A program made the translations under genes and the position numbers. Shown here in pieces: positions 1,655 to 57,956 of a DNA stretch of 64,000 nucleotides (position 1 is the stretch's first letter; every line of letters starts with the position of its first letter). Location of the stretch: contig CAZNDZ010000001.1 of assembly GCA_964572155.1 (NCBI GenBank), positions 782,290-846,289 on the forward strand, written 5' to 3'. The stretch is from an uncultured Planctomycetales bacterium. Its GTDB lineage: Bacteria > Omnitrophota > Gorgyraeia > Zapsychrales > Fredricksoniimonadaceae. The notes beneath the pieces were generated by a model that ran no database searches, was not told the DNA's origin, and was given only the letters and a program-made list of their open reading frames with translations.

Positions 1655-1673
1655 TGCGTTGTTAAGGAGCAAT

Positions 1674-3203: not shown

Positions 3204-3206
3204 GCC

Positions 3207-3512: not shown

Positions 3513-3524
3513 GAAGGAACAGGC

Positions 3525-3746: not shown

Positions 3747-3755
3747 GGATAACAT

Positions 3756-3983: not shown

Positions 3984-4002
3984 TCAAAGATAGGAGACTC
4001 TT

Positions 4003-4755: not shown

Positions 4756-4769
4756 TACCTTGAGGCGAC

Positions 4770-5627
4770 ATGGGCAAAGCCAGTAAAGTTAAATATGAAG
4801 TTATGGAAGTCCGTGAGCTCGTCGACCTCGTTCAAGTTTTAAAAGACGTTGCGGATATGAAGTATCACTCGCTGATTGCCCAGCGATCAAAGTTTAATCG
4901 TTTTACAGAATCCTTTACCGATTTCTTTAGTCTCGTCAGTTTCTCAGAAGTAAGACACCCTTTAGTTAATAACAGCACCCCTAAAACAGCCATTTTAGTT
5001 ATCTCATCTGAACGTGGTTTCGTTGGCGATTTAAATACGCGTGTGGTTAATCGTGCTGTTGAAGAATTAGAAAAATTAAATGGTAATGCAGAATTTGTTG
5101 TTATTGGCAAAAAAGGTGTTGGTAAATTAGAGAGCATGGGCTACAAGCTCTTAAAATCATGGGAAGATGTTGAAGACAAAGGTTTTTATGAAATGTCTTT
5201 GGAGATCAAAGACTTTCTAGTTAAAGAAGTTATGGAAGAGCGCATTGGACGTGTGATTGTCGTTTACCCATGGCCTAAAGACTATACCGTGATCAAGCCG
5301 CGTGCCGTTAAATTATTGCCCTGTGAAGATCTTTTGCCGCAGCAACAAGCGAGTGTTGATTTTTTTAAAGAACTGATTGAAGAATCTGATCCTGTCGATA
5401 TGATGGGTTATCTAGCAGATATGTGGTTGTCATCGAAAATATTTGAAATATTTTATGATACAAATTTAGCGGCAGCATCGGCGCAAACCCAGCAATTGGA
5501 TAATAGTTTAGGAAAGATGAAGAAAGAGCGGGAAGTTGTTAAGTTAAAATATCGCAAAGCCCGTCGTGGTGACATTGATAAGAGTTTACGTGAAGTTTTC
5601 TCAGCCAGAATGATGGCGATCAAATAG
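4770..5627 (+). CDS. atpG: F-type ATPase gamma-subunit-like protein
   Basis: 285 aa. TAILVISSERGFVGDLN resembles the gamma motif VGYLVVSTDRGLCGGLN. Helical N and C termini (YRKARRGDIDKSLREVFSA resembles the gamma C terminus). Position between b/delta and beta. Divergent. Confidence 0.55.
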   Translation: MGKASKVKYEVMEVRELVDLVQVLKDVADMKYHSLIAQRSKFNRFTESFTDFFSLVSFSEVRHPLVNNSTPKTAILVISSERGFVGDLNTRVVNRAVEELEKLNGNAEFVVIGKKGVGKLESMGYKLLKSWEDVEDKGFYEMSLEIKDFLVKEVMEERIGRVIVVYPWPKDYTVIKPRAVKLLPCEDLLPQQQASVDFFKELIEESDPVDMMGYLADMWLSSKIFEIFYDTNLAAASAQTQQLDNSLGKMKKEREVVKLKYRKARRGDIDKSLREVFSARMMAIK

Positions 5628-5634
5628 GAGATAG

Positions 5635-7095
<1,461 letters not shown>

Positions 7096-7096
7096 T

Positions 7097-8842
7097 ATGT
7101 TTAAATCCGTTTCCAATAAGATCCTCCAAGATGTCCTTATCAAACAAGGTATCTCAAGCGTTACCGATGTAGCCAGCCATTTTTTTGCCGCACAATCCCA
7201 GCGACGGGATTTGTATGCATATCTCATTGAGAATAATGTTATCCCTGAGACGGTCTTAGCTGGGGCATTGGCCAAAGAATTTCGCGTTGACATCGTTGAT
7301 CTGCGCAAAATTGAAATCCCCGATAGTGTCATCGACCGAGTTCCTGTCAAAATAGCTAGTTTCTATGAATTCATGCCTGTCGCTTTAAATGGCAATGAAT
7401 TAACCATTGCCGTCTATCTTCCAGGTGATTTGCGTATGGAAGATGACATTCGTATTAATCTTGGTTTGTCACCTAAGTTTGTTTTAGCACCTAAGTTGCA
7501 AATTCAAGAAGCGTTAAAAAAATATTATGGTTTTGCCTCCCAAACCATTGAAGGCATTTTAAATAAAGAGCCTCAAAAAATAGCGACTGATCACACGCAA
7601 GCTTGGGTTGAGGATATTGAGAAAAAGAGTGAAGATCCGTCGGTAGCCAAGTTGGTTAATCAGATCATTCTGGAAGCGTATCAAAAAAGAGCTACCGATA
7701 TTCATTTGGAACCGTACCGTGATAAAGTGCGTTTACGTTATCGCATTGATGGTGTTTTGGTTGATGCAAATTTACCTCCTGAGGCGAAACATTTTTTGTT
7801 GCCCATCTTATCGCGCATCAAGATCATGTCGAACTTAAGCATCACTGAGCGTCGCTTGCCGCAAGATGGCAGTACGGTTGTGCGCACCAATGAGCAAGAT
7901 TTGGATTTGCGTATCTCAACTATTCCCACACCTCGGGGGGAGAGTATGGTGATTCGCATCTTGCCAACAAAAAGCATGCGCAATAATTTAGAAAGTTTAG
8001 GGCTTAACGCCTACAATGCAGAAAAGTTTCGTAAATTAATTAGCCAACCCCATGGCATCATCTTTGTTACAGGACCGACGGGAAGTGGTAAGACCACAAC
8101 CTTATACGCATGTTTGCATGAATTAAATCGAGATGCTCATAAGATCATCACGATTGAAGATCCCATTGAATATGAGATGGAAGGTATCACCCAGATTCAG
8201 GTCAACCCTAAGATCAATTTTTCATTTGCGGAAGGTTTGCGTAGCATCTTGCGTCATGACCCTGATATCATCATGGTCGGGGAAGTTCGAGATTTAGAGA
8301 CAGCAGAAATAGCCATTCGGACAGCATTGACTGGTCATTTGGTTTTTTCAACCTTGCACACCAATGATGCTGCCTCAGGCATTACACGGTTGATTGACAT
8401 GGGGCTGGAGCCCTATTTGATTGCCTCTTCTGTTGAAGCATTTGTGGCTCAACGTTTGGTGAGATTGATTTGTCCTCAATGCAAACAGAAAGATGATCAG
8501 GTGCCTAAGGAAATTCGCCAAGAGATTAAAGAATCGTTGCAATTACCGACGGATGACTTCGTGGCATATAAGGGTGTTGGGTGTGATCATTGCAATCGTA
8601 CCGGTTATTTTGGGCGAACGGCAATTTACGAGATTTTTGAAATGAGCCCTGCGGTTAAAGCCATGCTTAATACAAAACCAAAATTAGAACAATTAAAAGC
8701 GTTAGGTTTGCAAAACGGGATGGTGACATTGCGTCAAAATGGTTGGCAAAGTGTTGTCGAAGGTTTGACGACGGTATCAGAAGTCTTGAATGTCACGGGA
8801 AGAAAAGACCCGGTTTCCGATTATGCCCTCGTTCGTCTATAA
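7097..8842 (+). CDS. gspE: Type II secretion / type IV pilus assembly ATPase, GspE/PilB family
   Basis: N-terminal T2SSE_N-like domain. Walker A GPTGSGKTTT. Walker B DPDIIMVGEVRD. His box GHLVFSTLHTND. Tetracysteine CPQC...CDHC. Starts 1 nt after the atpD stop. Confidence 0.85.
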   Translation: MFKSVSNKILQDVLIKQGISSVTDVASHFFAAQSQRRDLYAYLIENNVIPETVLAGALAKEFRVDIVDLRKIEIPDSVIDRVPVKIASFYEFMPVALNGNELTIAVYLPGDLRMEDDIRINLGLSPKFVLAPKLQIQEALKKYYGFASQTIEGILNKEPQKIATDHTQAWVEDIEKKSEDPSVAKLVNQIILEAYQKRATDIHLEPYRDKVRLRYRIDGVLVDANLPPEAKHFLLPILSRIKIMSNLSITERRLPQDGSTVVRTNEQDLDLRISTIPTPRGESMVIRILPTKSMRNNLESLGLNAYNAEKFRKLISQPHGIIFVTGPTGSGKTTTLYACLHELNRDAHKIITIEDPIEYEMEGITQIQVNPKINFSFAEGLRSILRHDPDIIMVGEVRDLETAEIAIRTALTGHLVFSTLHTNDAASGITRLIDMGLEPYLIASSVEAFVAQRLVRLICPQCKQKDDQVPKEIRQEIKESLQLPTDDFVAYKGVGCDHCNRTGYFGRTAIYEIFEMSPAVKAMLNTKPKLEQLKALGLQNGMVTLRQNGWQSVVEGLTTVSEVLNVTGRKDPVSDYALVRL

Positions 8843-10031
8843 AGCCAAGAATACTAGCGCACAAACTGTTACGGGGCATGTTCAAGCCCAGCATCAGGAA
8901 GAAGCGTTGGAATTTATCTACAATCAAGGCCTTGTTCCTGTTTCCATCGAAGAAGAAACCAATCGCGGTGTTTTAGTCAGCCAAATTCAAACAAAGAAAA
9001 TTAAGAGCAAAGAAATCTATTTGTTTACAAAACAATTAGCAGGCTTAGTCAAATCTTCCGTGTCGTTGTTAAAAGCTTTAGAAGTTATTGCGCAACAAAA
9101 TCGTAATCCTTATTTTTCAAAAGTTATCGACGAGATAGCTCAAGGGGTCAGGACTGGTCGTTCATTTTCAAATTGTTTGGCGCAGTATCCGGTGATATTT
9201 TCAAATGTCTATGTGTCTATGATTCGTGTTGGGGAGGAGATGGGGCATTTGCGAGATGTGTTGATTGACTTGGCGCAGTTTTATAAACGCCAAGATGAAT
9301 TATCAAGCAAGGTATCGAGTGCGATTGTTTATCCGCTTGTCATGTTAGGCGTGGGTTCATTAACCGTAATCTTTATTCTGACCTTTGTCTTGCCAAAGAT
9401 AGCTGTGATCTTTGCTGATGCACATGAGCAATTACCAACACCGACGATCATCGTGATGACGATTAGTCAGTATGTGCGTTTATTCTGGATTCCAACATTT
9501 GCAGCAGGAGCGATCCTTTTTGTCGGGTTTAATCGTTGGCGCAAAACAAATATGGGTAAGATTGTCATTGGCGGGTGGTTGTTGCGGTTACCCGTCATAA
9601 AAGATTTGGTTATTAAGATTGATTTCACCCGATTTAGTCGCACCACCTTCTTGTTATTGCAGAGTGGTTTGCCATTATTGCGGGCAATTGAGACAGCCGC
9701 TCAAACAATGTCTAATCCGCAGTTAAGGATGGATATGTTAATGACCGCAGAAGCGTTAAGTGGTGGTGAGAATTTTGGACGATCATTAGCGCGTTGTCAT
9801 CATGTGCCTCCTATTTTTATAGAGACTTTGGCGGTTGCGGAAGAGGGTGGGCACTTAAAAGAAGCCTTTGCGGATATTGCTGATTCTTGTGAAATGGATG
9901 TTTCCGACGCTATTAAAACAATTACAACGTTGCTCGAACCTTTTATGATTCTAGCCGTTGGTGCCGTTGTTGGTTTTATTATCTTTGCAATGCTCTTGCC
10001 TATTTTTTCTATGGATATCATGGCCAGATAA
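8823..10031 (+). CDS. gspF: T2SS/T4P inner-membrane platform protein, GspF/PilC family
   Basis: Two tandem GspF domains with 3 TM segments. N terminus MPSFVYKAKNTSAQTVTG is GspF-like. Start taken at ATG 8823, which overlaps the gspE stop by 20 nt; the ORF track begins at 8790. Confidence 0.8.
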   Translation: MPSFVYKAKNTSAQTVTGHVQAQHQEEALEFIYNQGLVPVSIEEETNRGVLVSQIQTKKIKSKEIYLFTKQLAGLVKSSVSLLKALEVIAQQNRNPYFSKVIDEIAQGVRTGRSFSNCLAQYPVIFSNVYVSMIRVGEEMGHLRDVLIDLAQFYKRQDELSSKVSSAIVYPLVMLGVGSLTVIFILTFVLPKIAVIFADAHEQLPTPTIIVMTISQYVRLFWIPTFAAGAILFVGFNRWRKTNMGKIVIGGWLLRLPVIKDLVIKIDFTRFSRTTFLLLQSGLPLLRAIETAAQTMSNPQLRMDMLMTAEALSGGENFGRSLARCHHVPPIFIETLAVAEEGGHLKEAFADIADSCEMDVSDAIKTITTLLEPFMILAVGAVVGFIIFAMLLPIFSMDIMAR

Positions 10032-10032
10032 A

Positions 10033-10860
10033 ATGCCTAACATGTTTACATGGATGCTGTGTTTTTTATTGTTTCTTAATGTTCCAGCACAAGCTTTTGA
10101 GATCAATTTTGATTTGGAACAATGGAAACAGAAGAAAGGCGACCATTTTGTTGTTTATTATACGCAACAATCACAGGAACAGGATGCAGGAGAAATCCTG
10201 CGACATGCTGAAGAGGATTATGAGCGTATCCTAGATCGTATTGGTGCTAAGAAGGTTGATAATTTCTGGACGTGGGATGATCGTGTAAAGATTGTTTATT
10301 ACCCAGATGCGCAAAGTTTTGTGAAAGCAACTGGGCAACCGTCATGGTCTAAGGGTGTTTCCCTGAGCCATGCATCTAATTTCAAAATGCGTTTGATTGT
10401 TAGCTTTCAAGGTCAAGATGACTTTCTAGGTGCCGTCTTGCCACACGAAATTAGTCATTTGGTGATGCATGATTTTATGCGCAATAAACCCATGCCACGT
10501 TGGTTTGATGAGGGGGTTGCACAATTAGACGAAAGCAATAATAACGAGGAGCATCGCAAACTTTTAGCAAAATTGATTGAAAGCAATCGTGGGATTCCTT
10601 TTGCGATGTTGGATGCGTTTCCTTCCATGATCAGTGAGGATCCCATGAAGGCTGCAATATTTTATGCAGAAAGTCTTTACATTGTTGACTTTTTGATTAA
10701 AACTTATGGTAAGGATAATTTTGCCGAATTATGCCGGTTATTAAGAGATGGTCAAAATTTTGAAGCAGCTTTGGCAAAAGCGTATTATCCGACCATAGAT
10801 TCGTGGCAAACATTAGAAGCAAAGTGGAATCAGTACATGTTGTCTTTTGTACACATTTAA
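10033..10860 (+). CDS. Secreted HExxH zinc-metallopeptidase-like protein (gluzincin-like), embedded in the T2SS operon
   Basis: Start at ATG 10033, 1 nt after the gspF stop. Signal peptide MPNMFTWMLCFLLFLNVPAQA. HEISH motif with a downstream DEG glutamate (LPHEISHLVMHDF...WFDEGVAQ). Not a PilD/GspO-type polytopic prepilin peptidase. Confidence 0.55.
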   Translation: MPNMFTWMLCFLLFLNVPAQAFEINFDLEQWKQKKGDHFVVYYTQQSQEQDAGEILRHAEEDYERILDRIGAKKVDNFWTWDDRVKIVYYPDAQSFVKATGQPSWSKGVSLSHASNFKMRLIVSFQGQDDFLGAVLPHEISHLVMHDFMRNKPMPRWFDEGVAQLDESNNNEEHRKLLAKLIESNRGIPFAMLDAFPSMISEDPMKAAIFYAESLYIVDFLIKTYGKDNFAELCRLLRDGQNFEAALAKAYYPTIDSWQTLEAKWNQYMLSFVHI

Positions 10861-10880
10861 TAGAATAAACAGGGGGCTAT

Positions 10881-11300
10881 ATGAATCTACGTAAATTTAA
10901 CCAAGCATTTACCTTAGTTGAGATCTTGCTAGTGGTTGTGATCATTGGGGCATTGGCTGCTATGATCATCCCACGATTTGCAGGTCGAGGAGAAACAGCC
11001 AAGGTCAAAGTTGCTCGGACTGATATCGAAGCAAATATTTCAACAGCCTTGAAATTATATGAATTAGATAATGGCAGCTTTCCTTCAACGTCACAAGGTT
11101 TAGCGGCCTTGAAAACCCGTCCAAGTGGCAATCCAATTCCTGCAAATTGGAATGGTCCTTACATCGAGAAAGCTCCTCTTGATCCTTGGGGTCATGCATA
11201 TGTTTATGCTTCTCCAGGGGAACATCGTTCTGACTATGACCTTTCTTCAAAGGGAAAGGATGAGGCATCTGACAAGGATGACATCACCAATTGGCAATAA
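10881..11300 (+). CDS. gspG: T2SS major pseudopilin GspG
   Basis: Prepilin leader and N-methylation motif (KFNQAFTLVEILLVVVIIG). GspG-specific C-terminal signature GLAALKTRP...PANWNGPYIEKAPLDPWGHAYVYASPGEHRSDYDLSSKGKD...DDITNWQ. Confidence 0.85.
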   Translation: MNLRKFNQAFTLVEILLVVVIIGALAAMIIPRFAGRGETAKVKVARTDIEANISTALKLYELDNGSFPSTSQGLAALKTRPSGNPIPANWNGPYIEKAPLDPWGHAYVYASPGEHRSDYDLSSKGKDEASDKDDITNWQ

Positions 11301-11682
11301 TTCAAAAGGGTTTACCTTTGTTGAAGTAATGGTGACGTTGGTTGTTCTTTCCTCGGGGATTGTTTTTATCTACAAATCTTTTTTCTTGTGCGCTGATTAT
11401 TTAACCCGCCTATCATTGCGCTTGGATGCGAATCAATTGCTCGATAATAAGATCACAGAGATCAAACGCTATGTTAGCGGTAGTCATGATCTTTCTTTTT
11501 CGCGTTCAGGAATTATCCCCGTGGAAGCGTTTAATCATCGCACGATTCAATTCTTCTATCAGACGGAGTTGTCGCCGATCATTGGTTCTGAGGATTTGTA
11601 TCAGATGAATGTTAGTCTGTCGTGGGAAGAATATGGTCATAAAAAACATTTAAATCGCATGAGCTTGTTGGAGATAGGATGA
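11278..11682 (+). CDS. Minor pseudopilin (GspH/GspI-like)
   Basis: Prepilin motif NNSKGFTFVEVMVTLVVL. Start is the ATG at 11278, overlapping the gspG 3' end by 23 nt in another frame. The ORF-track start at 11125 is spurious. Confidence 0.6.
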   Translation: MTSPIGNNSKGFTFVEVMVTLVVLSSGIVFIYKSFFLCADYLTRLSLRLDANQLLDNKITEIKRYVSGSHDLSFSRSGIIPVEAFNHRTIQFFYQTELSPIIGSEDLYQMNVSLSWEEYGHKKHLNRMSLLEIG

Positions 11683-12269
11683 GATTACGTCGTTCTGGAT
11701 TTACCTTAATGGAAATTTTGTTGGTCTCTGTCCTTATTGCTACGGTTTCGATTGCCATTTTTGGTGTTTTAAATAATGGCATTAAGTTATGGAGTCGTGG
11801 TATGGCGGTTGATAAAAAGGGCGAATTATTTATTGGCCTTGAGAAGATTGCCCAAGATTTTAGAGGGGTGTTGCCTTTTTCATTAATTAAATTTAAAGGC
11901 ATGGAATCGCAAGTTTCATTCGCAACCATTGTACTGACGCCTGCGGATGTTCGCAGCAGTCGCGTAACGGAGGGGATTGTGGATCAGCTTGGTGCTGTTG
12001 AATATCGTTTTGATCCTGCTTTAGGCAAGATGTTCCGACGACAAGCAGATTATGGTCAGGCCATTAAAAAGCAATGGGGTCAAGAACAAGAAATAGCATC
12101 GGGGATAAGTGATGTCCGTTTTGATTATTATATTGACGGGCAGAAAAGTTATGAACGCAAAGCGCATATTGAAACTCACATCCCAAAGGGTGTGATGTTG
12201 ACCATGCGATTTGGTGAACGTGGTCCACAAATGCAGCGTTATTTTGAAATCCCTGTGGGAGGACAGTAA
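11679..12269 (+). CDS. Minor pseudopilin (GspJ-like)
   Basis: Prepilin motif RRSGFTLMEILLVSVLIA. 196 aa. Four-nt ATGA overlap with the preceding gene. Confidence 0.55.
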   Translation: MRLRRSGFTLMEILLVSVLIATVSIAIFGVLNNGIKLWSRGMAVDKKGELFIGLEKIAQDFRGVLPFSLIKFKGMESQVSFATIVLTPADVRSSRVTEGIVDQLGAVEYRFDPALGKMFRRQADYGQAIKKQWGQEQEIASGISDVRFDYYIDGQKSYERKAHIETHIPKGVMLTMRFGERGPQMQRYFEIPVGGQ

Positions 12270-12274
12270 AAGCC

Positions 12275-13297
12275 GTGCGATTTAGAACATTACGACAAAA
12301 TGGTTTTGTTTTGATCTTTGCCTTATGGGTTTTGGGGTTGTTGACTTTTTTGGCCGTGAGCGTCGCTTTAGGTGTGCGCCAAAAAACGTTAGCGGCAGAG
12401 AAACTCGAAGAGCAAAGTCGCATGTATTATTTGCAAGAAGCGGTGCTTAAGCAAGTTAAGGTGTATATTCGCAAACAAATGAATGACCATCAATTTATTT
12501 ATACGGCAGATCTTAAACAACAACTTCATAATAATATAAACTTTTTTGGCCGCATTCCATTCGGAGCGGACAATGCATCTGTTAGTTTTACGTTGTATGA
12601 TCAAGGTCGTTCCATGGAACAGTTTGGTGTTGTTGACGAGGAGAGAAAGGTTAATCTCAATACAACTAATATCTATGTTTTACAGCGTCTAATCGAGCAA
12701 GTATTAGATGTAAAGCCAGAAGAGCGTTTACAGTTAGCTCAAGCCATTTTGGATTGGCGTCAACAAGGACAATCACAAGCTGACGGTTTTTTTAGCGATG
12801 ATTATTATGGGAATTTGAAACATGCATATTTTAAGAAAGATGCAAATTATGAATTGATGGAAGAGTTGCTATTGGTTAAGTGGATGACGCGCACTAAGTA
12901 TGAACGTTTATTGCCGTATGTGACGGTGTATGGTGAAGGTAAGGTGAATATCAATACAGCGTCGGGTGTTGTGTTGTATGCTTTGGGGCTTGATCATGCT
13001 GTCGTTGAAAAGGTTTTAACGGCCCGACGTGGAAAAGATGGGTTGGAGGCAACCGGGGATGATTTATTTTTTACAAAGACATTTGATGTGGCCAGTGATG
13101 TTGGAAGTCGTGTGAAGTTGGAACCGCAAGAAATGCGCGCCATAGATGCGCTTAATTTACAGGGTGTCTTGACGACAAATTCATATTATTTTTATTGTGC
13201 CATGCAGTCGCGTTTGTCACGCTCGGGTTGGTCTCGCCAAGCCCAAGCCATTTACGCGTCTAGGGATAATAAGGTTTTATATTGGAGAGAAAAATAA
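12275..13297 (+). CDS. gspK: Minor pseudopilin GspK-like protein
   Basis: N-terminal NGFVLIFALWVLGLLTFLAVSVAL matches the GspK G.ALL.VLW.L.LL signature. ~340 aa. Sits after the GspH/I/J-like genes as in gsp operons. Confidence 0.6.
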   Translation: MRFRTLRQNGFVLIFALWVLGLLTFLAVSVALGVRQKTLAAEKLEEQSRMYYLQEAVLKQVKVYIRKQMNDHQFIYTADLKQQLHNNINFFGRIPFGADNASVSFTLYDQGRSMEQFGVVDEERKVNLNTTNIYVLQRLIEQVLDVKPEERLQLAQAILDWRQQGQSQADGFFSDDYYGNLKHAYFKKDANYELMEELLLVKWMTRTKYERLLPYVTVYGEGKVNINTASGVVLYALGLDHAVVEKVLTARRGKDGLEATGDDLFFTKTFDVASDVGSRVKLEPQEMRAIDALNLQGVLTTNSYYFYCAMQSRLSRSGWSRQAQAIYASRDNKVLYWREK

Positions 13298-13366
13298 TTA
13301 TTTTTCCATGGTACGGTTATAAAATTTAGTTATAATAAAAACAATTAAATAAATACCAGAGGGCTC

Positions 13367-14788
13367 ATGTTCGGAAATGACAAAAAATTTTTAAGTGTCT
13401 TGATCGCAGATGCAACCATCAAAGTGGCACAGGTTACATCTTCCGGTAACGTAGAAAAAATCGCCCGTGCCACAGCAGCGAGCTCTACGCAGGATGAAGT
13501 TGTTAAGGCGCTTAAACCGCTTCTTGGTGGTTTTGATCGCAAGGCATCGGTTGTCTGTGTTATTTCAACAGCACATGCCACATCGAAGAGCATTGAAGTT
13601 CCATCCAGTGATCCAAAAGAAATAAAATCCATTATTAATTTACAAGCTAGCCGTCATACACCATATTCCCGTGAGGAAGTTATCATTGGGCACGTGAATC
13701 TTGGTAGCATGGCAAATGGTAATACCAAAATCCTACTCGTCATTGCTCATCGCAATGTGATAAAAGAACGTTTAGCTATTTTAGAAAAATGTGGTTTAGT
13801 TGCTGATAAGATCTTGTTTGCTCCTGAAGGCATTGGTCGTTTATATTCTAAGGGATTAAATCTTAAGAATAATGCCAGTGTTGGTGTTATCGATTTCGGT
13901 CTAAATAACGTTAATTTCTGCGTAGTCGGTCGAGGCAGCGTGATTTTTGCACGTTCCATCAATTTAGGCATCAAGAATTTGCTAGAGCCTGAAGGTGCAA
14001 AAGCGGTGGCTGATGAAATTAGCAAAACATTGGTTGCATTTCAAGCAGAAGACACCCAAGCGGTTGAATCTTTTATTGTGACAGGCGATCATAGTGTTAT
14101 CAAAGATTTCTTAACCACGTTAAATGATATTTTAAAAGTTGAAGTTCGTCTAAGTCCATATGTATCGCTTTTAAAGACAAATGCAGTGAAGGGTAAATTA
14201 CAAAAAGATTATGCCGATGACTCATTCTTAGAGGTTGTTGCTTCTGCTGTCACAAGCGCTAAATCAGAAGTTAATTTCATCCCAGATGAAATTGTCATGA
14301 AGCGCACGGTTGAACAACAAAGTGTTGAGGCAAGCAAAGCAGGTGTCGCAGGTGTTGTCATCATGTTGCTTTTAGGTGGCATCTTGATGAGTAAGATTTA
14401 TTTCAAAGATGTTTTCTTGACGAAGAATTTAAAACAGCGTTATGCAGAGCAACATGAAGAAGTTGTAGCGTTGCAAAATAAGATGGCTAAGGTGAGGATC
14501 GTCCGGGAATACATGCGCGATCGTCTGGTAGGTCTTGATGTTTTAAAAGAAATTTATCGTGTCACGCCTAATGACATCTATTTGTCAGCGATTAGTTTAG
14601 AAGAAGATGGCTCGTTGACCTTGTCAGGTATTTCACCATCAATGTCACAAATCTTTACTTATGTTAAGACGCTCGACGATTCACCAATGTTTGTCGATGC
14701 CAAAACAAAATCAACCTCAACAAAAAAAGACGGCGCCAAAGATTTAGCTGTGTTTGAGGTGGCATTAAAATTAAAGGAAGCGAATTAG
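13367..14788 (+). CDS. GspL-like / PilM-PilN fusion protein (cytoplasmic actin-like domain, TM, periplasmic domain)
   Basis: N-terminal actin-fold (PilM/GspL-cyto-like) region. Single TM (AGVAGVVIMLLLGGILMSKIYF) near aa 320. PilN/GspL-periplasmic-like C terminus. Preceded by a 69-nt AT-rich gap. Confidence 0.5.
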   Translation: MFGNDKKFLSVLIADATIKVAQVTSSGNVEKIARATAASSTQDEVVKALKPLLGGFDRKASVVCVISTAHATSKSIEVPSSDPKEIKSIINLQASRHTPYSREEVIIGHVNLGSMANGNTKILLVIAHRNVIKERLAILEKCGLVADKILFAPEGIGRLYSKGLNLKNNASVGVIDFGLNNVNFCVVGRGSVIFARSINLGIKNLLEPEGAKAVADEISKTLVAFQAEDTQAVESFIVTGDHSVIKDFLTTLNDILKVEVRLSPYVSLLKTNAVKGKLQKDYADDSFLEVVASAVTSAKSEVNFIPDEIVMKRTVEQQSVEASKAGVAGVVIMLLLGGILMSKIYFKDVFLTKNLKQRYAEQHEEVVALQNKMAKVRIVREYMRDRLVGLDVLKEIYRVTPNDIYLSAISLEEDGSLTLSGISPSMSQIFTYVKTLDDSPMFVDAKTKSTSTKKDGAKDLAVFEVALKLKEAN

Positions 14789-14789
14789 C

Positions 14790-15350
14790 ATGAATGTGAT
14801 CACACAATTTATAGCTGGCTTATCGAGCACAGGAAAAAAGTTATTTGCGATTGCATTTGTGATTGTTGCCATTGCCTTATTTGATCGCTTGCTTATCTCG
14901 CCGACATTGTCCCGCATGTCTGCCATCGATAGTGACATTGAAAAAGAGACCAATAGCATTAAGCAAGATTTACGATTTTTAAGTTATAAAGATAAAATTA
15001 ATTCAGAAAGCAAGGTTTATGCACCATACTTAAGCGAAAAAGCTTTGTCAGAAGAAGAAATTATCTCAGCTTTTTTAAAGAGCATTGAAGTTTTGGCTAA
15101 AAAAGGAAATGTCACGGTTGCAAAAGTAACGCCATCGTCTGGTAGTAAAGAAAAAGATTATGTGAAGTATGTTGCTGATTTAGAATGTTCAGGGGTGTTG
15201 TCTGACGTGGTGACGTTTATCCATTTAATTGATACTTCCGAAGAATTAATGAAGGTAGTGAAATTTAGTTTCTCTTCAAAGAAAGCCGACTCCGACGAAA
15301 TCAAAGCCGTCATGACCATCCACAAGGTCGTTATCTCAAAACGTGATTAG
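14790..15350 (+). CDS. GspM/PilO-like bitopic membrane protein
   Basis: 186 aa with an N-terminal TM (LFAIAFVIVAIALF) and a periplasmic domain. Follows the GspL-like gene after 1 nt. Confidence 0.4.
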   Translation: MNVITQFIAGLSSTGKKLFAIAFVIVAIALFDRLLISPTLSRMSAIDSDIEKETNSIKQDLRFLSYKDKINSESKVYAPYLSEKALSEEEIISAFLKSIEVLAKKGNVTVAKVTPSSGSKEKDYVKYVADLECSGVLSDVVTFIHLIDTSEELMKVVKFSFSSKKADSDEIKAVMTIHKVVISKRD

Positions 15351-16083
15351 ATTTTTCCTCATAGTTTTATTAAGTCTATTCGTTGTTATCCCCAATGCGA
15401 TGTCTGCAACTGTGCGCGAATTATACGAACAAGCTGTTGATAGTTACAATCAACAAAAGTTCGATGATGCCATTACGTCTTATCAAGAGATTTTAAAGAT
15501 GGCTCCAAATTTTGCGCCAGCCTATGTTGGCATCGGTCTTTCTTTGAAAGCTAAGGGGGCAGAGACCGACGAAGTTGTTCATTATTATAATGAAGCTGTG
15601 AATCATGATCCAACCAATTTGCAGGCCTTAGAGCAATTGGGGCGATTGTATTATGCTATTAATCAATTTGATAAAGCAGAGAAGGTTTTTTTAAAATCAC
15701 TTAAGATAAATCCTGCCCAACCAGAGATTAAACAAGCATTGGCATGGGTATATTTGATTGGAAAATCTAAGCCTGAGCTTGCCATCAAGTATTTTAAATC
15801 CGCAGGTCAATTAAATAAGCCAGACACGATGTATGGCCTTGGCATGGCGTATTTTTCTAACAATCAGCGCGTGGAAGCAATGGATATGATGATGCAATTG
15901 CGTTCCGGTGGTTTTGATGATTATGCCAAGCGGCTTGAGCAAGCCATCCGTGAGAACAGGCGTGTTGTCTTAGATAGTAATGAAGATGGTGGTTCGAAAG
16001 AAGATTTTTCCGATATGACAACCAAATCAAGTAAAAGTGGTGTCAAGGTCCGCTTACGCGGCAAGCTCTCCGATTTGAATTAG
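15343..16083 (+). CDS. Exported TPR-repeat protein
   Basis: Signal peptide MIRFFLIVLLSLFVVIPNAMSA. Several TPR-like repeats (AITSYQEILKMAPNFAPAY..., ALEQLGRLYYAINQFDKAEKVF...). Last gene of the T2SS block. Confidence 0.55.
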   Translation: MIRFFLIVLLSLFVVIPNAMSATVRELYEQAVDSYNQQKFDDAITSYQEILKMAPNFAPAYVGIGLSLKAKGAETDEVVHYYNEAVNHDPTNLQALEQLGRLYYAINQFDKAEKVFLKSLKINPAQPEIKQALAWVYLIGKSKPELAIKYFKSAGQLNKPDTMYGLGMAYFSNNQRVEAMDMMMQLRSGGFDDYAKRLEQAIRENRRVVLDSNEDGGSKEDFSDMTTKSSKSGVKVRLRGKLSDLN

Positions 16084-16115: not shown

Positions 16116-19100
16116 ATGCAAGGGAAGTTCTTAAAATTACTCCTATGTTGTTGTTTACTGCCATTTCCTAGATTATTTGCAGGGGAGATTGTATTGCCTG
16201 CACCAGGGACAATGGTGCATTTAAGCCCTGCTGTAGAAATACCCATCTTAAAAGGCATTAAAGTTCACAGCGACGATCCTTTCCGTCTCGAATTCGTCTT
16301 AGACTCCGGAAACAATACATCCACCGATCTAAAGGAAGAATCTAATAAGCTGATTAAATATTTCCTAGCCAGCTTAACCACCCCCGATAAAGACATGTGG
16401 GTCAATCTAAGCCCATATGAAAAAGACCGCATCATCCCAGATCAATTCGGCCAAACTCAAATGGGGCGCGATCTATTGGCGCAAGATTATATCCTCAAAC
16501 AAATCACCGCGAGTTTGATTTATCCCGAGGACACAGTTGGTCGAGAATTTTGGCGACGCGTTTATCAATCTTCAGCAAATAAAAACATTCCCGTTAAGAC
16601 ATTTAACAAAGTATGGATCGTCCCTGATAAGGCTGTTGTCTATGAAAATGCTAAGGCAGGGGCTGCGTATGTTGTGGAATCATCCCTTAAGGTTTTAACA
16701 GAACAAGATTACCTCGCCAGTACCAAAAATAACAATGAATCAAATAACAATCAAATCATCAAAGACGTTGTGATCCCGCAATTAACCAAAGAAATCAACA
16801 CCGGCGCCAACTTTGCTCAGTTGCGACAAGTATACAATGCCTTAATTTTAGCGACGTGGTACAAAAAGAAGATTCAAGACAGTATTTTAAATAAGGTTTA
16901 TTCGGATAAGCATAAGATTCATGGAGCAACATATGAGGACACGTTAGATACTAAATTGATTTATGCGCGTTATTTGGAAGCATTTAAGAAAGGTGCGTAT
17001 AACTACATCAAAGAAGATACTGAAACGCTTGGCATTACAGGGCCAAGAAAGTATTTTTCTGGTGGATTTAATTTGGCGTTGAGTGGTGATGACAGCCTAA
17101 AGGTTACAACGGATGCGGCCATGGTATATCGACGTAGGGATCATTTAATGCAAGTGGATGTTAATCTTTCAGGCATTTCATCACCATCAAGAAACTTGTC
17201 AGGGAAGAAAGTTAAGTTTTCTGAATTTGTTGAATGGATGAATCAAGATTTTGATAATCCTCATGTGCTTTCTGACGCAGAAGTTTCCTCGTTAGCTGCA
17301 AGATTTAATATTCAACATCGAGATTTTGATCTATTGAAAAAAGAAGGAATGAATATTGCTAAGGGAAGTTATGCGTTTTATCAAGATTTACCAAAAGATG
17401 GAAAGTTAAATGTCTATTTATTCCGTGATGCATTTGGACTATACCTTGCGGATAAGATGTCTGGTGGAGATCCTTTAGCCATGATGGTTTCAAAAACCTC
17501 TGTTAGTTCATTAGGATTGGATGGATTAGACGTGGAGATGTCTGCCGTTGTTGATGAGATCAAAAGGAGGATGGGTTTAGCACTGGATGCTCCTATACCT
17601 GAAGAGCAATATGCTAGATTTAAGCAATTATTTTTTAAGTTTTGGGACAACTTATTTGAACATAAAAGCGTTGGAAAGATGTCGTCGGATGATGCGTTTG
17701 TTTTGAAGGATCAAGATAATCTCATCAATGCCATGCATCAGTTATCTGCATATGCCAATAGCATAGGGATAACCAGTCAATTGGTAAAGACGAGAGGGGT
17801 TAGATTTATTGATACTACGATGAGAGGGACCCTTGTTCTTTTTATGGAAGCTGTGGTGCATATGATGGCTAAAAGTGATGGTTTACAACAGGATCAGATT
17901 AAAACAGATAGTCGGATGTTTTATAGTCAATGGTCGCAAGCTTTAAGCGCACTAAAGTTATCTTCATCTGAAAAGATTGCGCGCATGACAGAATATTTTG
18001 ATTATCCTATTAGGTTTAGAGGATTTGATAAGAATTATACGCCACGCGTAGAATTTCGAGATCCTCACTTTATCAACAAGTTTATTTTTTTAACACGATT
18101 AATAAAAAGTGAACTCTTAAGATTAAATCAAGATCACGCTCAAATGTCACAAAGTTTGTCGATGGATGATATTTCAATAATACAGACGATGCCTTTGAGT
18201 GAGGCTGGCAAGCAATTGATTGTACGTAAGGCGCGGGGGTTGATGGGACAAATGCAAGCTAATAGAGCACTATACCAAAATGGTCAGCACGATATATGGC
18301 AGGATGTTCCATCTTTAATAATGAGTAATCCATATTCTGCTGTTTTTCGTCCAGAAAATAAAGAGGCAATTCATGTGTATGCAGAGGAATTAAAAAGATT
18401 ATGGCTAGAGAATGGATTTGATGAGGCTTATGGGGCGCTTACTGAGGTTATCGCAGCGTTTGAAGCAAACAAAGGCGCCCGTCCATCACAGCTCACATTG
18501 TTTCACCAAGTATTCCTGCAATTTCTAGAGAGTTTCGATGCGCAAGCGAAGGCGATGGGTTTAGCACAGTTAGTCGTTAATCATAGTTTGCATTTAAGGT
18601 TTAATGGATTGCATGATGAGGTGCATGATGTTAATTGGGGTTCAGTCTTTATTGATAATGAATTATTAATTGGTCATGATGATATACAGGGAGCGCTTCA
18701 GAGGTATTTACTATCATTAGTTGAGTTAAGCAAAGACAAAAACAGATGGGAATCTATTCTACCGGGTAAGGACGGAGCAGCGAATCATTTAGGGATTAGA
18801 TTAAAAGATCATTTGTTATGGGTGCTTGTTCTAGGAATAGATCCTAGTCTTCATGCATTTACAAATCAACCAAATGATGTCATAGATGAGGTGTTGAAGA
18901 AATATTGGGGCACTGATAATCGAGAACAGGTGATGCAATTGGCTGTAAAGAAGATATTTAGCGATCCATTATTAAAAGATCATCTGGAAGAGATTAATGT
19001 ATTAGTCAAAGAAGCGTTAACGATTTCTTCTCAAGAGTGGGAAAGCAAAGGTTTACGTTCACCATATCGTTTTGGTGTGGATTTTGGAAGTGCTGAATTA

Positions 19101-19508
19101 TTATTCAAATCGACAAGATTTGCAGATACATCAGCTTGGGAAAAGTATCCTTTAAAAGATAGGTTTTTGATGGTTGGTTTGCAACCTGAATTTCTGCCCA
19201 CGTATGAGATCTTTGAAGATAGAGGTCTTAAGGGGAGAGTTGATGTGTATTTGGCACAAGATAAGGGTAAAGATTTGAGACCTTTGTATGAAAGAATTTT
19301 AGAGAAACAGTTATCCCTGTCGCCAACAGGTGGGATTGATTTGAATGCGAGTAGAATGAATTTGGAGACGCAGCAGGTTGGGGAGGGGATTCGGTTTAGG
19401 TTGGATGAGGGGCAAATTGAGCGTTTGAAAGATATGGAAGGTTTGTCGCATGTGATTATTAAGATTGCACCTGTCACAGATCTGCAGCAGTTTTTAGGGA
19501 TTTTATAA
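16116..19508 (+). CDS. Giant exported protein, paralog 1 of 3 (1130 aa). Conserved N-terminal ~330-aa domain and conserved C-terminal ~60-aa 'GGIDLNA' domain.
   Basis: Signal peptide MQGKFLKLLLCCCLLPFPRLFAG. The N-domain is near-identical in long stretches to those at 38454 and 55642 (LPAPGTMV.LSP, LIKYFLASLT, WVNLSPYEKDRI, GRDLLAQDYLLKQITASL, FNKVWIVP, LRQVYNALILATWYK, AFKKGAYNYIKE, PRKYFSGG). C terminus PTGGIDLNASRMNLETQ...IKIAPVTDLQQFLG. Confidence 0.8.
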   Translation: MQGKFLKLLLCCCLLPFPRLFAGEIVLPAPGTMVHLSPAVEIPILKGIKVHSDDPFRLEFVLDSGNNTSTDLKEESNKLIKYFLASLTTPDKDMWVNLSPYEKDRIIPDQFGQTQMGRDLLAQDYILKQITASLIYPEDTVGREFWRRVYQSSANKNIPVKTFNKVWIVPDKAVVYENAKAGAAYVVESSLKVLTEQDYLASTKNNNESNNNQIIKDVVIPQLTKEINTGANFAQLRQVYNALILATWYKKKIQDSILNKVYSDKHKIHGATYEDTLDTKLIYARYLEAFKKGAYNYIKEDTETLGITGPRKYFSGGFNLALSGDDSLKVTTDAAMVYRRRDHLMQVDVNLSGISSPSRNLSGKKVKFSEFVEWMNQDFDNPHVLSDAEVSSLAARFNIQHRDFDLLKKEGMNIAKGSYAFYQDLPKDGKLNVYLFRDAFGLYLADKMSGGDPLAMMVSKTSVSSLGLDGLDVEMSAVVDEIKRRMGLALDAPIPEEQYARFKQLFFKFWDNLFEHKSVGKMSSDDAFVLKDQDNLINAMHQLSAYANSIGITSQLVKTRGVRFIDTTMRGTLVLFMEAVVHMMAKSDGLQQDQIKTDSRMFYSQWSQALSALKLSSSEKIARMTEYFDYPIRFRGFDKNYTPRVEFRDPHFINKFIFLTRLIKSELLRLNQDHAQMSQSLSMDDISIIQTMPLSEAGKQLIVRKARGLMGQMQANRALYQNGQHDIWQDVPSLIMSNPYSAVFRPENKEAIHVYAEELKRLWLENGFDEAYGALTEVIAAFEANKGARPSQLTLFHQVFLQFLESFDAQAKAMGLAQLVVNHSLHLRFNGLHDEVHDVNWGSVFIDNELLIGHDDIQGALQRYLLSLVELSKDKNRWESILPGKDGAANHLGIRLKDHLLWVLVLGIDPSLHAFTNQPNDVIDEVLKKYWGTDNREQVMQLAVKKIFSDPLLKDHLEEINVLVKEALTISSQEWESKGLRSPYRFGVDFGSAELLFKSTRFADTSAWEKYPLKDRFLMVGLQPEFLPTYEIFEDRGLKGRVDVYLAQDKGKDLRPLYERILEKQLSLSPTGGIDLNASRMNLETQQVGEGIRFRLDEGQIERLKDMEGLSHVIIKIAPVTDLQQFLGIL

Positions 19509-38453: not shown

Positions 38454-41400
38454 TTGGCTTATATAGTATTTATATTCTATACTTTCCGTGTGAAATCCCC
38501 CTATAAGAAGCTTATTGCAATTGTGGTTATTTTAACTTTTTGGGCATCGCTATTTGTCCCACAGCAAGTCCATGCCCAATTAAGCTTACCAGCACCCGGC
38601 ACCATGGTGTCGCTTAGCCCTTCATTTCATCCGCCCGTCCTCAAAGGCATTAAGATTAATCCCAATGATCCTTTAAAGTTTGATTTCATCCTAGATAAAG
38701 GTTCCATAGAGACGCGATTGATCGCGTCTCAAACAACAACTTTAATTAAATACTTTTTGGCCGCATTAACAATCCCAGAACAAGACCTTTGGGTTAACTT
38801 AAGTCCGTATGAAAAAGACCGCATTGTGCCAGATTCTTTTGGTCAAACCGAAATGGGCAGAGATTTATTAGCCCAAGATTATTTGCTCAAACAAATCACG
38901 GCATCATTGGTTTATCCCGAAGGGGATATTGGCAAAGCATTTTGGAAAAAAGTTTATGCGTCATCCTCGACAAAAGATGTCCCAATCAATGCATTTAACA
39001 AAGTTTGGATTGTGCCTAATAAGGCCGTTATTTACGAAAATACCAAAGCAGGTACGGCTTATGTTATTGAATCTTCGTTAAAAGTTTTAACCGAACAAGA
39101 TTATCTTGCCAGCACTAAGAATAGTATTAAAACGAATAATAATCAAATCGTTAAAGATGTGGTGCTCCCGCAATTAACCAAGGAAGTCAACGAAGGGGCA
39201 AATTTTGCCAAGCTTCGTCAAGTCTACAATGCGCTCATCTTGGCCACGTGGTACAAAAGAAAAATCAAAGATAGTATCTTTTCAAAAACATATGCCGACC
39301 AAAACAAGATTAACGGCATAGCGATAAGCGACCTTAAAGAAAAACAGAAAATCTATGAACGTTACTGTGAAGCTTTTAAAAAAGGCGCATATAACTACAT
39401 CAAAGAAACACCGATGCCTGACGGGACAATGGTTCCAAGGAAATATTTCTCAGGAGGGGTAGTCCTAAAATTTGGCAACAATGATTTCGCCATGGTTGAT
39501 CATATTTCGGGAGAAGTGAAGGGAGATTTTGCACAGGTTAGCGTTGCATTGAAGTGGTTAAAGAAAATATTTGGTTCAAATACAAAAGGGATGTCGCAGC
39601 TAGAAATAAAGTTGATTGGCGATAATCCATTAAAGAAACAGGCGATTGAGGCGATATTGCAACGCATCGAATTGGGGAATTTAGTTGATAAGCAACGTCT
39701 AAGAGAGCTTGTGAGTATAGACCCAGAACATATTGCCATGGTCATAGACCCAAGAAATTATTCTGAAGCGATTCCATATAGTGCCGATTTTGTAACCATG
39801 GTGATAGGTAATGGCAAGGCTTTGGCTCAAGTAAGTCTAAGTCATGTCGGGATGGATTTCTTTCAGTCGGATGAAGGCGTTTTAATATTAAAAGAATTAG
39901 GCATGGGCATAATTTGGAAGACGCAGTTTGATCAGAATAAGGCAGTGATTCCAAATGTGGTCAATTTTTATTCTGTGCAAGGCATTAATAAGATTATCAC
40001 GGAGAATGCAGAATTTTTAAAACGTTATGGATATCGCGTTCAAGGTTTTATGGGGCAAGCTGACATTGAGCGTTTCATCACGTTATTGCTTATTAGTGAT
40101 TCAGCGCCACAACATGAATCGTCGATAAGCGCATTGTTTTACGGTTATCCTCGCGAGGCTGTAGAATCGTTTATGAAGCATATACAAACCATGTACTCCT
40201 TTCGAGACGCAATAAGAAACATATTCCCAATATATTTTCATAAAATCAAAGGCATTCATCCATTTGCCAAATTTGCCATCACCAAGGAGTCGTTTTTACC
40301 AGCCATGAAAAAATTAGAGGAGCGATATCGCGGCATTGATACCGTCTCAGCTGCATTAAGATATTCAAAAGATACAGATCAAGCGCAGATGGTTAAAGGG
40401 GTTTCATTAACGATAGAAGAGGCGAAGGCTATTAAGGTTTTAAGAAATATTTTGTCTAAGAATCAAAATGATATTTTATCGATTGGCGGCACGTCTGATG
40501 TTTTCTTTAATCGCATACGTTTTGAGCTTATTTTTGGTTTATTAGGTCAACACGTCGATGTTTTTCAGCCAAGGAAAGCATATTACAAGCAGTGGCAAAG
40601 AGATTTAAAGACGAGGGATTGGCAGAAGGTAAAAGATAATGTTTCGTTATATGAGGAGCCCTTTAGAAGCAACAGTCGCATAAATCCAAAAACTAAGTCA
40701 GTTGCTGTATTGATGAGTGTTCTTTCTGATCCTGAAGTAGCGGATTGGATAAAACAACGGTTGTTACAAAATGTATTAAATGTACTTCAAGAAAATGGGG
40801 TGTTGATTGTTGGTTGGTATAAAGATCGGAAGATCAGAGATCGTGAATTCCAAGATACCAAACGCATACTAGATTGGTTTGTCGAAAGAGGGTATACCTT
40901 TACGCTTGATACAGAACATCAGATCACAAGTTCCATGCATGAGATACAAATTTATCGTGTCACAGGGCAGCGTATAGGTTTCTTTCGATACTGGGCAAAG
41001 AGGTTATTTAATCAGCCTGTTGATCAAGCGATCCCAATTAGATTAAATGAAGCCTCGACTGATGAGATTAATTTCATCCGTGAGATGTCGTCGTTAAACT
41101 TAAGAGATGGTTCAAATATTGCAGCCATAGGTTCAACTAATGGGAAAGAAACGCATCTTCATGAAAAACAAATTCGAGTTCCAGAAGTTTTTGCGTCGAT
41201 GGGGCATCATGTGGACGTTTTTCAACCAGAAACATTTGGTGCAGATAAGTGGGAAACAGCAAAAGCTGCTGCAAATAGGCCTAAATATTTCAACAATATA
41301 ACCATTCACCGAAAATCCGTTGGTTATAACGGCGTGCTTCCAAAAGATTCAGTGTCGGTTGCTTTTCTAGATGCTGTCTTATCAGATCCTTTTATCATGG

Positions 41401-57852: not shown

Positions 57853-57956
57853 TACTTCCTCATAGACTGTCCAATTCCCTTGACTTACCTGTGTGCTTAT
57901 GTTAATTTGAATGTCTAAATTTCGTTTAAATTAACCCCATGGATAGGGAGGTTGTA

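Follow-up and report, generated by a model that had tools for sequence, protein, structure and literature searches.

How can three genes of one genome encode proteins that begin alike, end alike, and share nothing in between, and what might such proteins do? The question is raised by a stretch of 64,000 nucleotides (nt), hereafter the window, from contig CAZNDZ010000001.1 (assembly GCA_964572155.1) of an uncultured bacterium of the phylum Omnitrophota. Three open reading frames (ORFs) of the window, named A, B, and C and all on the + strand, encode proteins in which a conserved N-terminal domain and a conserved C-terminal domain (N-domain and C-domain) enclose a central region, here termed the cargo (Table 1). 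An initial annotation of this DNA had described three paralogous ORFs of 1130, 1719, and 736 amino acids (aa) with shared terminal modules and unrelated middles, and both parts of that description are borne out by the ORF list and by an all-versus-all BLASTP comparison. The existence of the family and of its architecture is virtually certain. For the reading that we favor as a whole, in which these are Sec-exported, Omnitrophota-wide modular proteins whose cargo is directed at a host or prey cell, we estimate a probability of about 0.5.

Over the N-terminal ~330 aa, A and B are 61–64% identical (BLASTP E values of 1e-127 to 1e-133), and C matches each of them at 49–51% identity (E 1e-95 to 1e-99). 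Over the C-terminal ~60 aa, A and B are 45% identical (E 2e-12), and C is 25–38% identical to A or B (E 1e-4 to 1e-5). The middles of the three proteins give no BLASTP match among themselves, and a tblastn search of the six frames of the window reveals no fourth copy of the family. The sequence motifs quoted in the initial annotation are present, but C, the most divergent of the three, deviates from them: it reads MPKPGEMV and PRKYFAGG, lacks the terminal FLG, and carries a 17-aa extra tail. The similarity at the N-terminus does span the ~330 aa given there, but the domain itself, which runs from the signal peptidase site as far as PRKYFSGG, measures ~295 aa. The three genes are old paralogues, their mutual distance being about that to homologues in other genomes.

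The same architecture recurs widely in the phylum. With the N-domain of A as query, 1357 proteins were retrieved, and the named matches all belong to Candidatus Omnitrophica/Omnitrophota except two, one from Minisyncoccia and one partial record from Auribacterota. A survey of one genome per species yielded at least 580 confirmed loci, of which the best 80 (L numbers) were used for all counts of neighborhood and architecture. Of these 80, 25 lie in third-party annotation (TPA) bins that bear the title “uncultured Planctomycetales” and 55 in records titled Omnitrophota or Omnitrophica; a single assembly contributes as many as 8. When hidden Markov models of both domains were scanned over the stop-to-stop ORFs of the 80 loci, the N-domain came first and the C-domain last in 59 of 59 ORFs having both (800–3071 aa); one ORF, cut by contig edges at both ends, already exceeds 3655 aa. 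ORFs with the C-domain only are found directly downstream of ORFs with the N-domain only, as expected of split genes, or at contig edges. These 59 full-length ORFs of other genomes strengthen the cargo-type design first suggested from the window, a constant N-terminus and a constant C-terminus around a variable payload. The label “giant” once attached to the proteins is, by contrast, overstated for Omnitrophota, as members range from 438 to more than 3655 aa. Deposited members are called “hypothetical protein” or bear a name derived from their cargo, such as “protein kinase”.

Independently, a profile of the C-domain matched 6012 proteins among 1.84 billion representatives clustered at 50% identity, 2709 of them at E ≤ 1e-10, and throughout the top 150 the match ends at the C-terminus of the protein. 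Among the representatives of at least 600 aa that carry a C-domain, 35 of 51 also carry the N-domain. The shortest intact member, P0072 (438 aa), consists of an N-domain, a 10-residue linker, and a C-domain.

A comparison of the cargo of 113 full-length members reveals how freely it is exchanged. Of 6328 pairs, only 53 have similar cargo, so that ~99% are unrelated. The matrix of pairwise distances among N-domains correlates with that among C-domains at r = 0.73, which may be set against r = 0.78 when 60 randomly drawn N-domain columns are compared with the remaining ones. This correlation, together with the unrelated cargos, indicates that the N- and C-domains were inherited together while the middle was replaced; the two ends share one evolutionary history, and the cargo is swapped between them.

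As for what is being swapped, the cargo of A has no match in Pfam, NCBIfam, or the sequences of the PDB and no similar cargo among the 113 members, and that of C has none in Pfam, NCBIfam, or PDB. Searches of A, B, and C with Pfam and NCBIfam gave no match outside the cargo of B, which is built of at least four modules. Two of these are copies of one ~170-aa module (31% identity, E 3e-25). They are followed by a module resembling NagB, glucosamine-6-phosphate deaminase (Pfam PF01182, 2.8e-14; TIGR00502, 2.4e-52, in two stretches and under the curated cut-off), and by a last module that recurs in another member, P0254, as its only cargo (32% identity, E 2e-48). In 54 cargo regions of other genomes and 52 short members, Pfam identifies methyltransferases, HATPase_c, Glu/Ala dehydrogenases, protein kinases, PPDK_N, SNF2 with Helicase_C, GGDEF, GNAT, GDSL lipase, uridine kinase/PRK, a starch-synthase domain, Zeta toxin, APH, Pol-beta nucleotidyltransferase, and sugar transferase, with an ELFV_dehydrog module scoring 7e-47. 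Judged by these matches, the recognized cargo consists mostly of enzymes of cytoplasmic type.

The constant ends, on the other hand, resemble nothing in the databases searched. In an alignment of 123 sequences, the N-domain has 29 invariant and ~70 near-invariant columns; it opens with a nearly invariant LPxPGxMV, a few residues past the signal peptidase site, and ends with PRKYFSGG. The C-domain, ~60 aa long, follows the pattern GGIDL ... PVIxxIxP ... FLG. An AlphaFold2 (AF2) model of residues 1–345 of A, computed from the 123-sequence alignment, has a predicted local distance difference test score (pLDDT) of 81.7 and a predicted template modeling score (pTM) of 0.79. It consists, in order, of the signal helix, an extended proline-rich N-terminus, a β-hairpin, a helical bundle, a long β-hairpin (residues 166–195), and three long helices. 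A Foldseek search of this model against the PDB returned nothing better than E 0.5, and the best match in BFVD has E 0.11. Profiles of the two domains found nothing meaningful among PDB sequences, the C-domain giving only chance-level matches to internalins (E 0.3), and no Pfam family is recurrent across 52 full-length members at E ≤ 0.1. The initial statement that neither terminal module is a named family therefore stands, Pfam, NCBIfam, and PDB sequences and folds all being empty, and both constant domains appear to be new. A full-length AF2 model of C, based on 51 homologues carrying both domains, has a pLDDT of 55 overall and of ~30 in the cargo; within this low-quality model, the C-domain shows two short strands and one helix of at least four residues, with a local pLDDT of 59–85. 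The near-invariant glycine pairs of PRKYFSGG and GGIDL were considered as double-glycine sites of C39 peptidases, an assignment that was not adopted because it rests on the residues alone.

The N-domain follows directly upon a predicted signal peptide in each of the three proteins, a claim of the initial annotation that holds on re-examination by heuristics (n-, h-, and c-regions, Kyte-Doolittle hydrophobicity, and a small-x-small site). Each has a basic n-region, a 12-aa hydrophobic core with a Kyte-Doolittle value of 2.3–2.9, and a small-x-small site, LFA|G in A, VHA|Q in B, and VMA|E in C, 3–7 residues before LPxPGxMV. In B, the listed TTG start at 38454 adds 12 hydrophobic residues before the basic stretch (38454–38492) and is probably too far upstream; the true start is probably the GTG at 38490, because the sequence beginning there (MKSPYKK...) is a canonical signal peptide. 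By the same heuristic, a small-x-small site lies just upstream of LPxPGxMV in 94 of the 104 homologues having that motif. A further hydrophobic segment is absent from A, B, and C, the C-terminus included, and from the cargo of 96 of 113 full-length members (85%), so that the whole chain would leave the cytoplasm if the signal peptide works. Export of the family is, on these predictions, likely.

Between the conserved ends and the cargo lies a short motif, [DN]xAM, which the initial annotation had not noted. In 62 cargo regions of the family, D.AM occurs 91 times against 6.7 in shuffled sequences (~14-fold) and N.AM 28 times against 4.3, whereas D.AL, D.AI, and D.AV are not enriched; in the window proteins outside the family, the motif occurs at 0.12 per 1000 aa. 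At least one copy is present in 86 of the 113 members. In these 86, the first copy stands at a median of 18.5 aa past the N-domain, and in 55% a copy lies within 30 aa of the C-domain. “DxAM” emerges in the MAFFT consensus at both ends of otherwise unrelated cargo regions, and the flanks of the motif show no conservation among the 113 members. In both AF2 models the motifs sit in segments of low pLDDT, which are presumably disordered. Borders of shared cargo modules lie within 40 residues of a motif in 48% of cases, a modest excess over the 29% of random positions. A four-residue motif in putatively disordered linkers at module borders looks like a processing site or a short docking site.

Taken in order, the parts of a family member are a predicted cleavable signal peptide, the ~295-aa N-domain, a presumably disordered junction with one to three copies of [DN]-x-A-M (sometimes A-Q in place of A-M), one or more cargo modules, often a second junction, and the ~60-aa C-domain. 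We propose that the whole protein crosses the inner membrane via Sec and that the N- and C-domains together act as a constant frame, by which the cargo is targeted, held, or translocated outside the cytoplasm. Such a frame would be recognized by something equally constant, be it a transport step or a structure of the envelope or of the host. The roles first suggested for the two modules, recognition or translocation for the N-domain and sorting or anchoring for the C-domain, remain plausible proposals. Because the recognized cargo needs ATP, NAD, S-adenosylmethionine (SAM), or nucleic acids, another cell would be its most probable place of action, and the proteins would then be effectors of a host-dependent nanobacterium; ultra-small size and host-dependent or predatory traits have been described for Omnitrophota (Seymour et al. 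2023, PMC10066038). The [DN]xAM junctions would serve as processing or recognition sites that release the cargo or hand it over. The individual steps carry different weights. Delivery into a host is a tentative proposal, to which we give somewhat less than an even chance, and cleavage at [DN]xAM is put forward with the same reserve. The most specific version, in which the N- and C-domains are two halves of an unrecognized Omnitrophota sorting and delivery route that recognizes the frame and takes arbitrary folded enzymes from Sec through the outer envelope into an attached host or prey cell, with release at [DN]xAM, is doubtful at present.

Several observations weigh against host- or prey-directed cargo or weaken the argument for it. 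Export rests on signal peptides that were judged heuristically, and cleavage at [DN]xAM is deduced purely from position, enrichment, and disorder; moreover, we know of no protease of this specificity. The poor full-length model of C (pLDDT 55) provides no evidence for or against a contact between the N- and C-domains. When 802 neighboring ORFs were clustered, no conserved partner such as a transporter, a protease, or an immunity gene emerged, the commonest neighbor being present at 7 of 80 loci. The C-domain occurs without the N-domain in 16 of the 51 representatives of at least 600 aa; in one case checked, P0435, the gene is split, and an ORF just upstream bears the N-domain. P0386, likewise without an N-domain, has a different signal peptide but lies on a 1.4-kb contig and may be an assembly chimera. 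As to the cargo, most of it has no recognizable family, many modules are ordinary metabolic enzymes unlike typical toxins, and the NUDIX match of the last module of B is weak, its NUDIX box looking degenerate.

The main rival explanation keeps the proteins with the cell that makes them. As self-directed envelope or surface enzymes, smaller counterparts of the phylum's giant surface proteins, they would be anchored by the N-domain to peptidoglycan, outer membrane, or a coat and capped or docked by the C-domain, and the cargo would work in an enlarged periplasm or at the surface. The very strong conservation of the N-domain suits the binding of a constant self structure, genes for protein glycosyltransferases (STT3-like proteins and a TMTC-like membrane protein) recur near some family genes, and an OmpA-family gene follows C. 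In addition, giant multi-enzyme proteins with signal peptides are read as periplasmic or extracellular in a recent catalog (Nielsen & Lui 2026, 10.64898/2026.06.07.730766). We consider this explanation unlikely all the same: cargo that depends on ATP, NAD, SAM, or DNA (kinases, dehydrogenases, methyltransferases, an SNF2 helicase, GGDEF) would find no cofactors outside the cytoplasm, no anchoring signal of the SLH, LysM, OmpA-like, lipobox, or sortase/exosortase type was detected in the family proteins, and motifs in disordered linkers suggest release rather than a permanent tether. The cytoplasmic character of the cargo would also fit if the proteins were not exported at all, the hydrophobic segment being an uncleaved anchor or non-functional and the proteins membrane-tethered cytoplasmic multi-enzyme scaffolds, and a minority of members (P0309, P0308, and P0096) do have a clear hydrophobic helix after the N-domain. 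Such an arrangement is very unlikely, as the following chain is oriented outward by the basic residues that precede the hydrophobic core, the small-x-small site directly precedes LPxPGxMV in 94 of 104 homologues, and 85% of members lack a second hydrophobic segment that would return the cargo inside. Least probable of all, and by a wide measure improbable, is that the conserved ends are the recombination arms of a fast-turnover cassette and that much of the cargo is non-functional debris of gene capture. Split or frameshifted copies, unrecognizable cargo, and its exchange between constant ends would all fit, but the ends are conserved as protein (50–60% identity, some residues being invariant) rather than as near-identical DNA, divergence among the paralogues of the window is as great as that from homologues elsewhere, ORFs stay intact at lengths reaching beyond 3600 aa, and enzyme modules such as NagB (2e-52) and ELFV_dehydrog score well.

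The initial annotation had instead proposed the proteins as prime candidates for substrates of the neighboring type II secretion system (T2SS), with the N-domain as the recognition module. The operon in question, of a type IV filament with features of both T2SS and type IVa pili (T4aP), encodes a PilB/GspE ATPase, a GspF/PilC platform protein, a Peptidase_MA_2 protein, prepilin-type proteins or pseudopilins, a GspK-like minor pseudopilin, a PilM-PilN fusion, and a tetratricopeptide repeat (TPR) protein. A begins 33 nt past its last gene on the same strand, and family genes lie a few kilobases from the same operon in L055 and L007. Several components are T2SS-like, the platform protein matching GspF best in NCBIfam, the minor pseudopilin matching GspK at 1.8e-22, and the PilM-PilN fusion resembling GspL; furthermore, substrates of T2SS require a Sec or Tat signal peptide. 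T2SS-like loci also lie beside giant genes of Omnitrophota according to West-Roberts et al. (2023, 10.1101/2023.11.21.568195). Only A adjoins the operon, however, and filament-system genes are found within 10 kb at just 3 of the 80 related loci. At L055 and L007 the operon is followed by a TPR gene, then by an STT3 gene on the opposite strand, and only then by the family gene, so that operon and family gene are not co-transcribed there. B and C stand among housekeeping genes, B following the gene for phosphoenolpyruvate carboxylase (PEPC) and C following purA. The ATPase matches PilB (560 bits) as well as GspE (555 bits), both under the NCBIfam cut-off, and the window contains no secretin gene. 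To our knowledge, the known substrates of T2SS share no linear or domain-sized signal. Loci of this kind have been annotated as type IVa pili with a non-respiratory F-type ATPase coupled to them (PMC10066038). As specific substrates of the adjacent T2SS, then, the proteins are distinctly unlikely. The filament system may still be involved in their secretion, since a substrate need not be encoded beside the machine that secretes it, and genomic position gives little support either way. Around A, promoter-like sites occur at the shuffled expectation (22 versus 22.5), and the gap that separates A from the operon contains no terminator-like site.

Constant ends around variable cargo are a principle familiar from other secretion systems, of which TpsA proteins, cargo of the type IX secretion system (T9SS), and MARTX and polymorphic toxins are the closest analogies. 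None is homologous, and each fails at least one defining feature. TpsA proteins of two-partner secretion (TPS; type Vb, including CdiA) likewise have a Sec signal peptide followed by a family-defining conserved N-domain of ~250–300 aa and a long variable passenger, and they occur as several paralogues per genome with cargo swapped behind the constant N-terminus. They carry the TPS domain PF05860, a β-helix, to which Pfam gave no match at E ≤ 0.1 in 52 members of the present family, whose N-domain is predicted to be α+β with long helices. The gene for their Omp85 transporter TpsB lies next door, whereas no neighbor of the family is recurrent in the 80 loci, and the window neighbors (PEPC, purA, OmpA-like, and STT3) include no TpsB; the conserved C-domain is an additional difference. 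T9SS cargo shares with the family a Sec signal peptide, arbitrary domains, and a conserved domain of 60–100 aa at the extreme C-terminus that is common to many paralogues. The C-domain of the family matches no T9SS C-terminal domain (Por secretion tail) family in Pfam or NCBIfam, however, and T9SS cargo lacks a shared N-domain and typically comprises hydrolases and adhesins rather than enzymes of cytoplasmic type. The T9SS domain folds as a β-sandwich; for the C-domain of the family, the low-quality full-length model of C gives two short strands and one helix.

MARTX and polymorphic toxins (Rhs, LXG, CdiA-CT) also place exchangeable effector modules between constant terminal regions. In MARTX, the central effectors stand between linkers that are cleaved for release in the target cell, the closest analogy to the action proposed here, but the MARTX hallmarks of type I secretion, glycine-rich repeats, and a cysteine protease domain within the toxin were not detected in the family, where cleavage is deduced from sequence only. 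Immunity genes, as known for polymorphic toxins, do not follow the family genes at the 80 loci. Autotransporters and inverse autotransporters (types Va and Ve) differ in their 12-stranded β-barrel, the N-domain being predicted as helices with two β-hairpins and the C-domain measuring only ~60 aa. Signals for sortase, exosortase, or rhombosortase, in which a C-terminal motif precedes a transmembrane helix and a basic tail, are unlike the ends of A, B, and C, which lack a C-terminal hydrophobic segment; the C-domain ends in FLG without a helix. Cargo of encapsulins or microcompartments, which is cytoplasmic and bears a short targeting peptide at one end but no signal peptide, differs in that the family has a predicted signal peptide, and no shell genes are among the annotated neighbors.

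A further comparison is with the giant multi-enzyme proteins of Omnitrophota, which belong to the same phylum and pose the same paradox of exported polypeptides tiled with cytoplasm-type domains. In the two catalogs, which are limited to proteins of 10,000 aa or more (Nielsen & Lui 2026) and of ~30,000 aa (West-Roberts et al. 2023), their domains include methyltransferase, HATPase_c, GNAT, HAD, NUDIX, PPDK_N, GGDEF, and starch-synthase. Class 1 of Nielsen & Lui combines a signal peptide or transmembrane segment with many distinct cytoplasm-type Pfam domains per polypeptide, as the family does, but at lengths of at least 10,000 aa against 438 to more than 3655 aa. Neither catalog, in its accessible parts, describes an N- or C-domain common to the giants or a junction motif in them, and the same holds, within the portions available, for the literature searched on giant or secreted proteins of Omnitrophota. 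The family would be categorically new if a dedicated delivery route were found.

Table 1. Positions in the window of the three family genes, their parts, and the operon upstream of A
Feature	Position	Strand	Description	Basis
Type IV filament (T2SS/T4aP-like) operon	7097..16083	+	context; directly upstream of A
A	16116..19508	+	whole gene, 1130 aa	ORF list, translation, N/C similarity
A predicted Sec signal peptide	16116..16181	+	aa 1-22, cleavage after LFA	heuristic
A N-domain	16182..17066	+	aa 23-317, LPAPGTMV ... PRKYFSGG, alpha+beta	BLASTP, 123-sequence alignment, AF2
A DAAM	17112..17123	+	aa 333-336, 16 aa after PRKYFSGG, low-pLDDT linker	
A cargo	17124..19328	+	~735 aa, no recognizable family; internal DHAQ 18132-18143	
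A C-domain	19329..19505	+	GGIDLNAS ... FLGIL, extreme C-terminus	
B	38454..43613	+	1719 aa as listed; likely start GTG 38490	ORF list
B N-domain	38577..39458	+	aa 42-335, after predicted cleavage VHA|Q	
B DFAM	39483-39494	+	aa 344; junction segment 39483..39536	
B DFAQ	39525-39536	+		
B D-x-A-Q at later module borders	40377-40388, 41625-41636, 43389-43400	+	last one 10 aa before GGIDL	
B cargo, duplicated ~170-aa module	40458..41618	+	aa 669-836 and 884-1055	
B cargo, NagB-like module (glucosamine-6-phosphate deaminase)	41658..42608	+	aa 1069-1385	
B last cargo module	42510..43370	+	aa ~1353-1639, weak NUDIX match	
B C-domain	43431..43610	+	GGIDLNASKMNVET ... FLGVSG	
C	55642..57852	+	whole gene, 736 aa	ORF list, N/C similarity
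C predicted signal peptide	55642..55710	+	VMA|E	heuristic
C N-domain	55711..56625	+	aa 24-328, after predicted signal peptide	
C first DRAM	56665..56676	+	aa 342-345, segment with pLDDT<50	
C cargo	56677..57594	+	~306 aa, unrecognized; pLDDT ~30	AF2
C second DRAM	57595..57606	+	aa 652-655, 12 aa before GGIDL	
C C-domain	57643..57849	+	GGIDLNAEH ... plus 17-aa tail; pLDDT 59-85 over aa 660-720	AF2

Among the other features of the window, the filament operon is preceded by genes for an F1-type ATPase (1659–7095), with the alpha subunit at 1659, an OSCP-like subunit at 4003, gamma at 4770, and beta at 5638; no Fo subunit gene was identified among the window ORFs scanned. The alpha subunit also matches the Mycoplasma gliding-motor family NF045863 (5e-120). 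A non-respiratory “symbiotic F-type ATPase/T4aP locus” is present in every class of Omnitrophota (PMC10066038), and the arrangement of F1-ATPase and filament genes in the window matches it. Within the operon, between the platform-protein and pseudopilin genes, the Peptidase_MA_2 gene (9958–10860) encodes a member of a zinc metalloprotease superfamily with a homologue in L057; its product is a candidate processing enzyme, and nothing ties it to [DN]xAM.

Convergent with A, and overlapping its 3′ end by 6 nt, is a gene on the − strand (19503–21971) for an STT3-like oligosaccharyltransferase of 822 aa (PF02516, 1.4e-22). STT3 homologues also lie within a few kilobases of family genes in L007, L051, and L055, a proximity which hints that the exported family proteins may be glycosylated. 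The commonest neighbor in the survey, exemplified by a 642-aa ORF on the − strand of L019, codes for a protein that spans the membrane several times and has TPR repeats in its C-terminal part, presumably resembling protein O-mannosyltransferases of the TMTC/PMT type. The OmpA-family gene directly downstream of C (57939–58568) encodes a protein of a peptidoglycan-binding family. An ORF of 1076 aa (30803–34033) that follows a polysaccharide deacetylase gene has no Pfam match and, in NCBIfam, only a weak, partial match to the β-1,3-glucan phosphorylase family GH149 (6e-36, far under the cut-off). In the cargo of B, the tandem copies at 40458–40961 and 41103–41618 share the motifs HVDVFQP, VLSDP, GWYK, and YRV and have no family assignment.

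Elsewhere, two or three family genes that differ in cargo may stand in tandem, as in L079 (2278–12790, three genes), L044 (5028–21098, three genes), and L040 (4383–12472). The short member P0072, which has neither cargo nor [DN]xAM, is present on five contigs, the longest of 43,909 base pairs. Family genes are split or frameshifted at ~8 of the 80 loci. Single in-frame stops, TAA in L032 (4692–4694) and TAG in L073 (18743–18745), interrupt two of them, L020 and L074 have frameshifts, L010 and L078 are also split, and in L082 an N-domain-bearing ORF is followed by ORFs with the remainder of the gene. Pseudogenization, sequencing error, or recoding could underlie these cases.

Omnitrophota are abundant, mostly uncultured, and thought to live on or prey upon other cells, and they pose two questions, how they act on their hosts and why they export huge polypeptides made of enzymes that should work only in a cytoplasm. 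The family described here is among the largest uncharacterized ones of the phylum, with thousands of clusters at 50% identity and several copies per genome, and it offers a small, well-defined handle on them in the form of two compact domains without detectable relatives and a four-residue motif. Two new domain models would give a name to thousands of “hypothetical proteins”. If the constant frame is an envelope anchor, it would explain how an enzyme “coat” is built; if it is a delivery signal, it would define a new effector repertoire and possibly a new principle of secretion or sorting. Should the two domains indeed be halves of a delivery route, a nanobacterium would reprogram the metabolism of its host with its own “cytoplasmic” enzymes, and the same ends and junctions may organize the giant multi-enzyme proteins of the phylum.

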